Positions 45,141 through 46,695 of a stretch of 64,000 nucleotides of DNA are shown here, one piece after another. Made by a program: the position numbers and the translations under genes. The first letter of the stretch is position 1, and each line of letters begins with the position of its first letter. The stretch is taken from contig NC_074722.1 in assembly GCF_947242115.1 (NCBI RefSeq), forward strand, positions 29,860,340-29,924,339. Direction: 5' to 3'. The notes beneath the pieces were generated by a model that was not told the DNA's origin, searched no databases, and worked only from the letters and a program-made list of their open reading frames with translations. The DNA comes from Biomphalaria glabrata (taxonomy: Eukaryota).

Positions 45141-45336
45141 CTGCAATGATTGGAAACAGGGTAAAGAAAACTTATTCTAATTAATTCTTCTAGATCAAAT
45201 GTCAAGTTTGTCAGTTAACAATCTCCTTTAATCCAAATACTTAATTATTATTACATACATATATTAAACATAAATGAATAACAGCACCAGGGACCAAGTT
45301 TTTAAGAGAGAAAGTAGTGAATTAAAATGCTACGAA

Positions 45337-45445
45337 AATAAGGGCATGCGCCGACCGAGGCTCGAACCTGTGACACTGGATTCGACACCACCGCCTAGCG
45401 ATAACGCACCAAGCGAATCTAGCCTCTAGACCATCGGAATGTCCA
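45337..45445 (-). ncRNA. Candidate Pol III transcription unit, unit 1: tRNA-like head with box A TGGTCTAGAGG and box B GGTTCGAGCC, and a downstream T4 terminator (…gcccttatttt). An octamer ATTTGCAT lies ~45 nt upstream (45484-45491, - strand).
   Basis: The motifs are read on the - strand. A to B spacing is ~55 nt. The stems do not fold into a canonical cloverleaf, so this is tRNA-derived rather than a tRNA. Confidence 0.3.
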
Positions 45446-45844
45446 AAAAAAACATTCTTCTGATCCAGAGTCATTTCGCCCGTATGCAAATTACCACCCC
45501 AGTGGTCAAAGGTCACAAGCTCCAGCTAGCCCCTCCCCCACCCTCGTAGCATCCGTTCACTAACAACTTCGATAGAGCCAACACAGACAGCCGTTAGGCA
45601 TGTATTAGACAAACGATGGCTCTATCTAATTGTTTATCTCTCACAAAGACAAGTGGACAACATAAACACATTACATATAGAAGCTTCAGTGGGTACGAGC
45701 AATAATGCTGTAAACGTAAATGTAAACATAGAGTTGAAGCTGGGTGCTGAAACAAATGATACATACATATATTAAACATAAATGAATAACAGCACCAGGG
45801 ACCAAGTTTTTAAGAGAGAAAGTAGTGAATTAAAATGCTACGAA

Positions 45845-45954
45845 AATAAGGGCATGCGCCGACCGAGGCTCGAACCTGTGACACTGGATTCGACACCACC
45901 GCCTAGCGATAACGCACCAAGCGAAACTAGCCTCTAGACCATCGGAATGTCCAA
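45845..45954 (-). ncRNA. Candidate Pol III unit, unit 2 (same module, ≥98% identical to unit 1).
   Basis: Periodic copy at +508/509 nt from unit 1. Confidence 0.3.
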
Positions 45955-46353
45955 AAAAAAACATTCTTCTGATCCAGAGTCATTTCGCCCGTATGCAAAT
46001 TACCACCCCAGTGGTCAAAGGTCACAAGCTCCAGCTAGCCCCTCCCCCACCCTCGTAGCATCCGTTCACTAACAACTTCGATAGAGCCGACACAGACAGC
46101 CGTTAGGCATGTATTAGACAAACGATGGCTCTATCTAATTGTTTATCTCTCACAAAGACAAGTGGACAACATAAACACATTACATATAGAAGCTTCAGTG
46201 GGTACGAGCAATAATGCTGTAAACGTAAATGTAAACATAGAGTTGAAGCTGGGTGCTGAAACAAATGATACATACATATATTAAACATAAATGAATAACA
46301 GCACCAGGGACCAAGTTTTTAAGAGAGAAAGTAGTGAATTAAAATGCTACGAA

Positions 46354-46461
46354 AATAAGGGCATGCGCCGACCGAGGCTCGAACCTGTGACACTGGATTC
46401 GACACCACCGCCTAGCGATAACGCACCAAGCGAAACTAGCCTCTAGACCATCGGAATGTCC
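46354..46461 (-). ncRNA. Candidate Pol III unit, unit 3.
   Basis: Periodic copy at +509 nt from unit 2. Confidence 0.3.
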
Positions 46462-46695
46462 AAAAAAACATTCTTCTGATCCAGAGTCATTTCGCCCGTA
46501 TGCAAATTACCACCCCAGTGGTCAAAGGTCACAAGCTCCAGCTAGCCCCTCCCCCACCCTCGTAGCATCCGTTCACTAACAACTTCGATAGAGCCGACAC
46601 AGACAGCCGTTAGGCATGTATTAGACAAACGATGGCTCTATCTAATTGTTTCAGCACCCAGCTTCAACTCTATGTTTACATTTAATTATTATTAC

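Follow-up and report, generated by a model that had tools for sequence, protein, structure and literature searches.

A tandem-repeat insertion, probably RNA-mediated, beside a rebuilt splice donor in a MED24 intron of Biomphalaria glabrata

This analysis concerns a 1,427-bp insert in an intron of MED24, located in a 64-kb stretch of Biomphalaria glabrata DNA (contig NC_074722.1, positions 29,860,340 to 29,924,339). The whole stretch is referred to as the window, and positions are counted from its first letter. The host gene lies on the minus strand. Its joined exons match Pfam Med24_N (PF11277, E = 2.6e-133), and the best homologue of this 610-aa query is B. glabrata MED24 (protein P0001). Per-exon tblastn identities of 90–97% reflect high-scoring segment pairs (HSPs) that run on into introns; since the same mismatches recur when P0001 is aligned to its own locus, the exon translations, with the run-ons discounted, equal P0001 exactly. 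The exon upstream of the insert follows an acceptor reading CTTTCAG/A (slashes mark splice boundaries), and its translation, IASWKEMIMYLPYALQEILFAVEHMALNLEKVK, is identical to P0001 residues 617–649. The affected intron is in phase 0. When exons are counted along the B. glabrata protein, its neighbors are coding exons 15 and 16; an initial annotation of this DNA had called them exons 14 and 15. P0001 residues 463–469, which fall between coding exons 11 and 12 (window 52301–52411 and 48573–48725), are covered by no tblastn HSP, and isoform P0125 carries an 8-aa insertion at this gap, suggesting a micro-exon or an alternative splice site in the large intron. In that case the exon numbering would shift by one more.

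The insert is bounded by a direct repeat. The window contains exactly two occurrences of the 14-mer TTAATTATTATTAC, at 45241–45254 and 46682–46695, with a chance expectation of 0.28 matches even when one mismatch is allowed. The offset between the two is 1,441 bp, and each borders one end of the foreign block (45255–46681). At the donor side the minus strand reads ...GTCAAG/GTAATAATAATTAA across 46696/46695, and at the other side the downstream exon begins at 45140, preceded by TTGCAG. The duplication regenerates intron positions +1 to +14 and leaves the donor AAG/GTAATA intact; lying 14 nt from the insertion, this donor owes its survival solely to being rebuilt by the duplicated target. The target stretch is (TAA)n-like. 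Homology to the repeat unit of the insert extends 3 nt into each copy of the 14-mer (TAC on the left, TTA on the right), so the strictly target-derived duplication measures 8–14 bp. The initial annotation had recognized a mobile insertion with a perfect flanking repeat next to a functional, preserved donor, and both points stand, given exact 14-mers at the two ends, single copies at three empty sites, and a restored AAG/GTAATA. Its coordinates were right to within 1–3 nt (46682–46695, 45140 and 46696 hold), but the left 12-mer lies at 45243–45254 and not at 45244–45255, the insertion is 14 nt rather than 12 bp into the intron, and 100 bp instead of 103 bp separate the left 14-mer from the acceptor.

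Orthologous loci were compared, as the initial annotation had proposed, and none of them contains the insert. Nucleotide identity of the locus to the window is 95.5% for the B. glabrata iM line and 95.6% for iBS90; between these two strains it is 97.1%. For B. pfeifferi the value is 93.5–93.8% against the window, iM and iBS90 alike. By these sequence identities, the window is a B. glabrata-lineage haplotype and B. pfeifferi serves as the outgroup. The iM locus has one 14-mer (16716–16729) and reads GTCAAG/GTAATAATAATTAA followed directly by GTATTTGGATTAAAGG...; the donor-side flank of the window aligns to iM positions 16545–16729 and the acceptor-side flank aligns from 16716, so that the overlap is exactly the 14-mer. 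In iBS90 a single 13-nt variant, GTATAATAATTAA, is found, and in B. pfeifferi GTAATAATAATAAA occurs once. The iBS90 site (approx. 15512–15524) is one base shorter than that of iM and the window, which alters donor position +4; the (TAA)n-like target is thus itself length-polymorphic. No similarity to the insert was detected anywhere in the iM, iBS90 and B. pfeifferi loci. Because the 14-mer is single-copy and free of insert in three orthologous loci, it is the target sequence duplicated at insertion, that is, a genuine target-site duplication (TSD).

The same loci reveal the history of the intron. In iM, iBS90 and B. pfeifferi the ancestral-type intron is 157 bp, whereas the window intron without the insert is 114 bp (45141–45254). 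This difference is a 43-bp deletion, located 20 bp beyond the acceptor-side TSD copy, which by comparison with the other loci is derived in the window lineage and is probably independent of the insertion. The intron therefore grew from 157 bp to 1,555 bp, or from 114 bp if the deletion came first. Expansion of a short intron by insertion had been correctly read from the window, but the ancestral length had been put at ~115 bp, which is the remnant after the deletion. Lymnaea stagnalis has a 412-bp intron at the same position and phase that cannot be aligned and gives no polarity for the 43-bp indel, for which B. pfeifferi was used as outgroup. The repeat copies in the insert are 99.4–100% identical, while divergence in the flanks is 4.5% from either B. 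glabrata strain and 6.5% from B. pfeifferi. Judged from these distances and from MED24 exons that translate exactly as P0001, the insertion is young. It is probably polymorphic and appears to segregate among B. glabrata lineages. The features of the intron are listed in Table 1.

Table 1 Features of the MED24 intron and its insert (window coordinates).
Feature	Position	Strand	Remarks
MED24 downstream exon (coding exon 16, 155 nt)	44986–45140	-	MIIDHIRKQ...GID(T), then donor GTGAGT
Remainder of original intron (branch region, polypyrimidine tract, acceptor TTGCAG)	45141–45240	-	Collinear with B. glabrata and B. pfeifferi except for the 43-bp deletion
43-bp deletion junction	45219–45221		Versus iM, iBS90 and B. 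pfeifferi; TTG microhomology
Acceptor-side TSD copy	45241–45254		Second exact 14-mer
Array copy 1 (unit 2–509)	45252–45758	-	First 3 nt TAC (45252–45254) common with TSD
Array copy 2 (full 509-bp unit, reference)	45759–46267	-	BLAST of unit against window
Array copy 3, truncated (unit 1–386)	46268–46651	-	5'-truncated first copy in inferred RNA sense
39-nt inverted "tail", reverse complement of unit 468–506	46646–46684	+	39/39 identity on the minus strand
Donor-side TSD copy	46682–46695		Minus strand GTAATAATAATTAA, intron +1 to +14
MED24 upstream exon (coding exon 15, 100 nt)	46696–46795	-	Ends ...GTC AAG at 46696; protein-guided count

The initial annotation left out the internal structure of the insert, which carries mechanistic information. 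With a GC content of 43.6% (compared with 32.3% for the window), the insert consists of 2.76 head-to-tail copies of a 509-bp unit and a 39-nt inverted end-piece, as shown by a BLAST comparison of one unit with the window. In minus-sense order, a TSD copy is followed by the inverted 39 nt, the 5'-truncated unit, two full units and the other TSD copy. The array periods are 508 and 509 bp; copy 1 differs from copies 2 and 3 by two substitutions, and the A-runs of the three copies are 8, 9 and 7 long. Since unit positions 387–509 occur only in the complete copies, at least 1.76 units were present at insertion. Copy 1 forms the minus-sense 3' end of the insert, ending in ...AUAUAUGUAU(GUA). This 3' end is defined, as seen in one event only, while the 5' end is truncated at unit position 386 and carries the inverted 39 nt.

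The inverted piece stands at the gene-upstream end, and its source is the sequence just 3' of the array end. It overlaps copy 3 by 6 nt (TTGTTT, 46646–46651) and the TSD by 3 nt (TTA, 46682–46684), leaving 46652–46681 as its unambiguous part, and the inverted-repeat pairs it forms are 100% complementary. Microhomology is thus present at all three joints of the insert: TAC (3 nt), TTGTTT (6 nt) and TTA (3 nt). The direct array ends at unit position 2–5, here termed S1, and the 3' end of the inverted copy, termed S2 (unit 468–471), lies 40–46 nt further 3'. The termini of the insert, ATACAT... and ...TTTACAT, do not form an inverted repeat with one another, and the insert ends lack both a poly(A) tract and TC...CTRR.

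The unit is predicted to fold strongly as RNA. For the minus-sense unit the minimum free energy (MFE) is -183.6 kcal/mol, compared with -140.3 +/- 5.9 for shuffled sequences (z = -7.3); for the plus sense the MFE is -127.9 (z = -4.1). About 70% of the minus-sense unit is predicted to be paired, in a rod-like fold that persists when the RNA is folded as a circle and is dominated by a hairpin of ~110 bp (r197–445) with a U9 apical loop, in the coordinates of copy 2 (45759–46267). When the hairpin arms are aligned with each other under a scoring blind to mismatch type, 74 positions are Watson-Crick pairs, 20 are G.U and three are A.C (binomial p = 5e-4 for symmetry). Neutral decay of a DNA palindrome would give equal numbers of G.U and A.C, so the fold appears to have been maintained or edited as minus-sense RNA. 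This modelled asymmetry implies that the family has a minus-sense RNA stage, in the same orientation as MED24. Within r307–402 of the minus-sense unit, the U9 run is followed ~15 nt downstream by a tRNA-Glu-like GGTCTAGAGGCTAG and ~65 nt further by a B-box-like GGTTCGAGCCT. In principle, transcription by RNA polymerase III (Pol III) could begin past one U-run and terminate at the following one, yielding a unit-length RNA permuted with respect to S1. Each unit also has acceptor-like (U9...CUAG/A) and donor-like (CAG/GUUCGA) sites.

Insertion of this sequence was probably RNA-mediated and primed from both target strands, the insert being read as a non-autonomous retroelement. A staggered break across intron +1 to +14 was filled in and gave the 14-bp TSD. 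In the proposed course of events, the template would be an RNA of window minus-strand sense, co-oriented with MED24. The first target 3'-OH (...TTATTAC-3') would pair over 3 nt with the RNA at S1 (...AUGUAUGUA), and reverse transcription would extend this first cDNA over 2.76 unit lengths, copying either a multimeric transcript, a unit-length RNA in circular form, or successive unit-length RNAs with end-to-end template jumps between them. The second target 3'-OH (...AATTAA-3') would pair over 3 nt at S2, 40–46 nt further 3' in the RNA, and its cDNA would be extended by only 39 nt. The two cDNA 3' ends would then pair through 6 nt (TTGTTT/AAACAA) and be sealed. Priming of both strands at a 14-nt stagger, together with end-to-end annealing of the cDNAs, yields the order of parts found in the insert. 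In the initial annotation the length of the TSD had been taken as a clue to mechanism. Its exclusion of a Helitron and its preference for retroposition hold, but TSD length alone is insufficient, and the dual-priming junctions and strand-specific RNA fold are stronger arguments.

As the enzyme responsible, a Penelope-type reverse transcriptase (RT) with a GIY-YIG nuclease, acting in trans, is favored, albeit tentatively, by comparison with Penelope-like elements (PLEs). The architecture of the insert, with two alternative 3' end points ~40 nt apart, is characteristic of PLEs and of derivatives that are not autonomous, among them the non-LTR retrozymes of animals. In published PLE insertions, partial tandems, an adjacent inverted 5'-truncated copy, an optional "tail" of 30–40 bp and variable TSDs are described (PMC8557442; PMC3846280). 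This tail spans the distance from one internal start site of reverse transcription to the second, and in vitro the Anolis PLE cleaves and extends both strands of its target (PMC11167929). Non-autonomous PLE derivatives give rise to multicopy head-to-tail insertions (PMC8557442).

Several observations weigh against RNA-mediated insertion by such an enzyme. The tail interval of 40–46 nt is slightly above the published range, S1 and S2 rest on a single insertion event, and Pol III would terminate within every unit at the minus-sense U9 run. The hammerhead core CUGANGA is absent from both strands of a unit dimer, with one mismatch allowed. Neither BLAST (word size 7) nor nhmmer revealed another copy of the unit in the window, and ~92 kb from related loci (L001–L004) likewise had none; no autonomous partner was found in the window. 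In a RepeatMasker-type annotation of the B. glabrata genome, Penelope elements make up 0.01%, compared with 8.4% for RTE/BovB and 4.3% for L2/CR1 (PMC10903818). Given this abundance, an enzyme from a long interspersed nuclear element (LINE) is the more available RT.

The searches for relatives of the unit and for a mobilizing partner were otherwise negative. Ten open reading frames (ORFs) from the element are absent from a 15-billion-protein collection, and a homology search with the concatenated element ORFs returned nothing at E <= 10. Exact unit k-mers were not found in metagenome, prokaryote genome or viral contigs, and six unit k-mers had no text match in the papers searched. Rfam gave no match to the unit at E <= 1; at E <= 10 only a chance match to SCARNA7 was returned (13 bits, gathering score 65). 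ARAGORN predicted no tRNA genes and Rfam no tRNA in the unit. By eye, no P1/P3 arrangement of a hepatitis delta virus (HDV)-like ribozyme is seen in the S1 region, for which no descriptor search was made. The window has no ORF of >= 230 aa, and no RT is among the ORFs that were listed or scanned; six window ORFs compared with Pfam matched only Vault, DUF383 and noise, with no whole-window Pfam scan for RT/GIY-YIG made.

Classical twin priming by the RT of an RTE- or CR1-type LINE is the most serious alternative, which we regard as unlikely but worth weighing. The inverted 39 nt would then be an ordinary 5' inversion, the template would be an RNA polymerase II read-through of a genomic tandem array or a set of template-jumped unit RNAs, and S2 would be accidental microhomology. 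LINEs amount to 14.8% of the B. glabrata genome against the 0.01% annotated as Penelope (PMC10903818), and fragments resembling LINE C-termini are present in the window. Twin priming would be expected to give variable TSDs, priming microhomologies of 3 nt and a 5' inversion joined through microhomology, and the microsatellite-like ...TATATGTATGTA at the end of the insert has its counterpart in the tails of stringent-type pairs of short interspersed nuclear elements (SINEs) and LINEs (PMC4758252). Head-to-tail multimers, however, are unusual for LINEs and SINEs; the insert has no tRNA, 7SL or 5S head and no poly(A), and no LINE in the window matches the 3' end of the unit. S2 lies 40–46 nt past S1 and the inverted piece ends within ~10 nt of the unit boundary, each of which has a probability of only a few per cent for a random second primer on a 509-nt repeat. 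LINE-driven twin priming does reproduce the geometry, but both the S1–S2 spacing and the multimer are left as coincidences.

Capture at the DNA level is improbable. Here a piece of a satellite array, or of a rolling-circle-amplified extrachromosomal circle of the 509-bp repeat, would have entered a staggered double-strand break through microhomology-mediated end joining or replicative template switching. It would account for the microhomology at all three junctions and for the non-integer copy number, as expected of a concatemer fragment, and the inverted 39 bp could be explained by a template switch of the fold-back kind over just 120 nt. Yet the 14-bp duplication is clean, with no target base lost, which fits nuclease-staggered, target-primed insertion better, and random concatemer breakage gives no reason for an array end within 5 nt (modulo the unit) of the source of the inverted segment. 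The strand-specific, G.U-rich fold, moreover, points to an RNA phase of the family. A Helitron or Helentron, or a cut-and-paste DNA transposon or miniature inverted-repeat transposable element (MITE) with internal tandem repeats, can be practically dismissed. Helentron-derived elements in molluscs are known to hold tandem repeats, and the unit does contain long inverted repeats, but Helitrons make no TSD, with which a 14-bp TSD at verified empty sites is incompatible, and 14 bp exceeds the fixed TSDs, 2–11 bp long, that known superfamilies of DNA transposons produce. The partner of the 39-nt inverted repeat is an internal site and not, as expected of a DNA transposon or MITE, the other terminus. 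This origin is refuted by the empty-site comparison, and the ends are not 5'-TC...CTRR-3'. It is also very improbable that the insert is ancestral and was precisely lost elsewhere, or that it is an assembly artefact. A single 14-mer is just what recombination across the 14-bp direct repeats would leave behind, but such a loss would be needed in B. pfeifferi and in both B. glabrata strains, and the array copies are ~0.5% apart while the lineages differ by 4.5–6.5%. Structures with tandem and inverted retroelement copies do trouble assemblers (PMC8557442), but the flanks, TSD and junction microhomologies are too orderly for a chimeric join, and copy number alone could be misassembled.

Other repeats and genes were noted in the window. 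ORF fragments resembling LINE C-termini (DRxxW-type, by eye, unconfirmed by Pfam) are located at 13790–14113 (-), 31400–31600 (-), 33598–33929 (-) and 55081–55240 (+), with 33610–33768 and 55081–55240 being inverted copies of one family (83% identity); none of these fragments matches the 3' end of the insert. A dispersed repeat of ~165 bp, unrelated to the 509-bp unit, is present in three copies that are 76–86% identical, at 6491–6658 (+), 26321–26485 (-) and 48173–48338 (-), one of them inside a MED24 intron. Between coding exons 11 and 12, the MED24 intron of 3.6 kb includes a 44-bp tandem repeat (49356–49556, 4.7 copies, 88% matches). Convergent with MED24 is a major vault protein gene (approx. 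28800–38000, plus strand; Pfam Vault repeats, E = 5.6e-15 and 7.4e-18), a synteny that annotation also shows for the loci of B. glabrata and B. pfeifferi. An ORF of 228 aa at 3938–4630 (minus strand), in which Pfam recognizes DUF383 (E = 2e-29), is probably an exon of a neighboring gene.

The insertion represents a textbook case of tenfold intron expansion (157 to 1,555 bp) verified by empty sites. As a result, 2.76 copies of a predicted highly structured, sense-oriented RNA with U9 tracts now lie in the pre-mRNA of an essential Mediator subunit, and because the insert apparently segregates, it offers a ready marker for the polymerase chain reaction and a natural test of splicing tolerance. 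The integration mechanism of PLEs and animal retrozymes is poorly understood, and a young insertion with intact junctions, a known pre-insertion sequence and microhomology that can be read at each of the three joints constrains that mechanism directly. There is also a hint that B. glabrata, annotated with almost no Penelope or SINE content, harbors an active structured-RNA retroelement missed by repeat libraries. The insertion is a good example rather than a surprise, and its value would rise if genome-wide copies confirmed the two fixed end points.

A more specific and rather speculative proposal is that the 509-bp unit is an undescribed retrozyme-like element, ribozyme-less or with a novel ribozyme, that is now active in this schistosomiasis vector. 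A rod-shaped, G.U-rich RNA of ~509 nt would be cut to unit length at S1, perhaps circularized, and copied by rolling-circle or template-jumping reverse transcription, with a Penelope-type enzyme initiating at two fixed positions ~43 nt apart. If this were true, the insertion would be a snapshot of two-start-site, two-strand priming, so far seen only in vitro with the Anolis PLE.

The insert can be compared with several known systems. With tRNA-derived SINEs of molluscs it shares a short, non-coding, non-autonomous nature, a microsatellite-like 3' end, a variable TSD, and the B-box-like GGTTCGAGCCT and tRNA-Glu-like GGTCTAGAGGCTAG in the minus sense of the unit. The tRNA-like stretch, however, lies mid-unit in one arm of the 110-bp hairpin, and the insertion is a multimer. 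A tRNA-derived SINE head was rejected, as ARAGORN and Rfam found no tRNA and only the mid-unit B-box-like motif is present; nor was a SINE-type 3' tail common with a partner LINE detected by similarity within the window or L001–L004. L1-type twin priming, a model reportedly put forward by Ostertag and Kazazian in 2001, resembles the present case in that both strands prime, the 5' segment is inverted, the TSD is variable, and microhomology occurs at the inversion and at both target junctions. In contrast to L1 insertions, there is no poly(A), the body is multimeric, an 81-nt gap separates the inverted and direct segments, and the second priming site is at a PLE-like distance from the first.

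Metazoan non-LTR (LTR, long terminal repeat) retrozymes are tandem units of 150–450 bp with low GC content, high self-pairing and TSDs of > 4 bp (PMC7229834). The insert is similar in its short array of a few-hundred-bp unit (retrozymes form dispersed dimers, trimers and larger arrays), a GC content below 45%, a TSD of > 4 bp, and a predicted self-paired, rod-like unit RNA. Circular-RNA or rolling-circle reverse transcription, as proposed for retrozymes, would give exactly such a non-integer head-to-tail array (PMC7229834). Differences include the absence here of the defining type I hammerhead and a unit of 509 bp rather than 150–450 bp. Vertebrate retrozymes are reported to be depleted from introns, whereas this insert is intronic and sense-oriented (bioRxiv 10.64898/2026.07.22.740005). 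In the same preprint and a related study, animal non-LTR retrozymes are now argued to be non-autonomous PLE derivatives (10.64898/2026.07.22.740005; PMC7229834).

PLEs themselves offer a further set of comparisons, comprising Pen2a_Av and pLTR-captured genes (pLTR, pseudo-LTR) in Adineta vaga, MRC1/Chlamys in Chlamydomonas, and invertebrate Naiads. Common to these and the insert are a head-to-tail partial tandem, a variable TSD with an empty site, and an AT-microsatellite-like target. The short inverted 5' copy overlaps the direct copy by 6 nt here, compared with 15 nt in Pen2a_Av, and one end is longer by a tail of ~40 nt, in the single event available here. Unlike PLEs, the insert has no RT/GIY-YIG ORF, its inverted copy consists of the tail only, and the annotated Penelope content of B. 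glabrata is tiny. Canonical PLE clades carry a hammerhead in the pseudo-LTR, while Naiad and Chlamys, like the insert, do not, so that among PLEs the missing hammerhead fits only the Naiad/Chlamys type. Naiads are without hammerhead and favor AT microsatellite targets (PMC8557442), and in one published account they are reported from no gastropod. On the basis of these likenesses, the 509-bp element may provisionally be placed, as a hammerhead-less member, among the PLE/retrozyme-like, tandem-forming non-autonomous retroelements.

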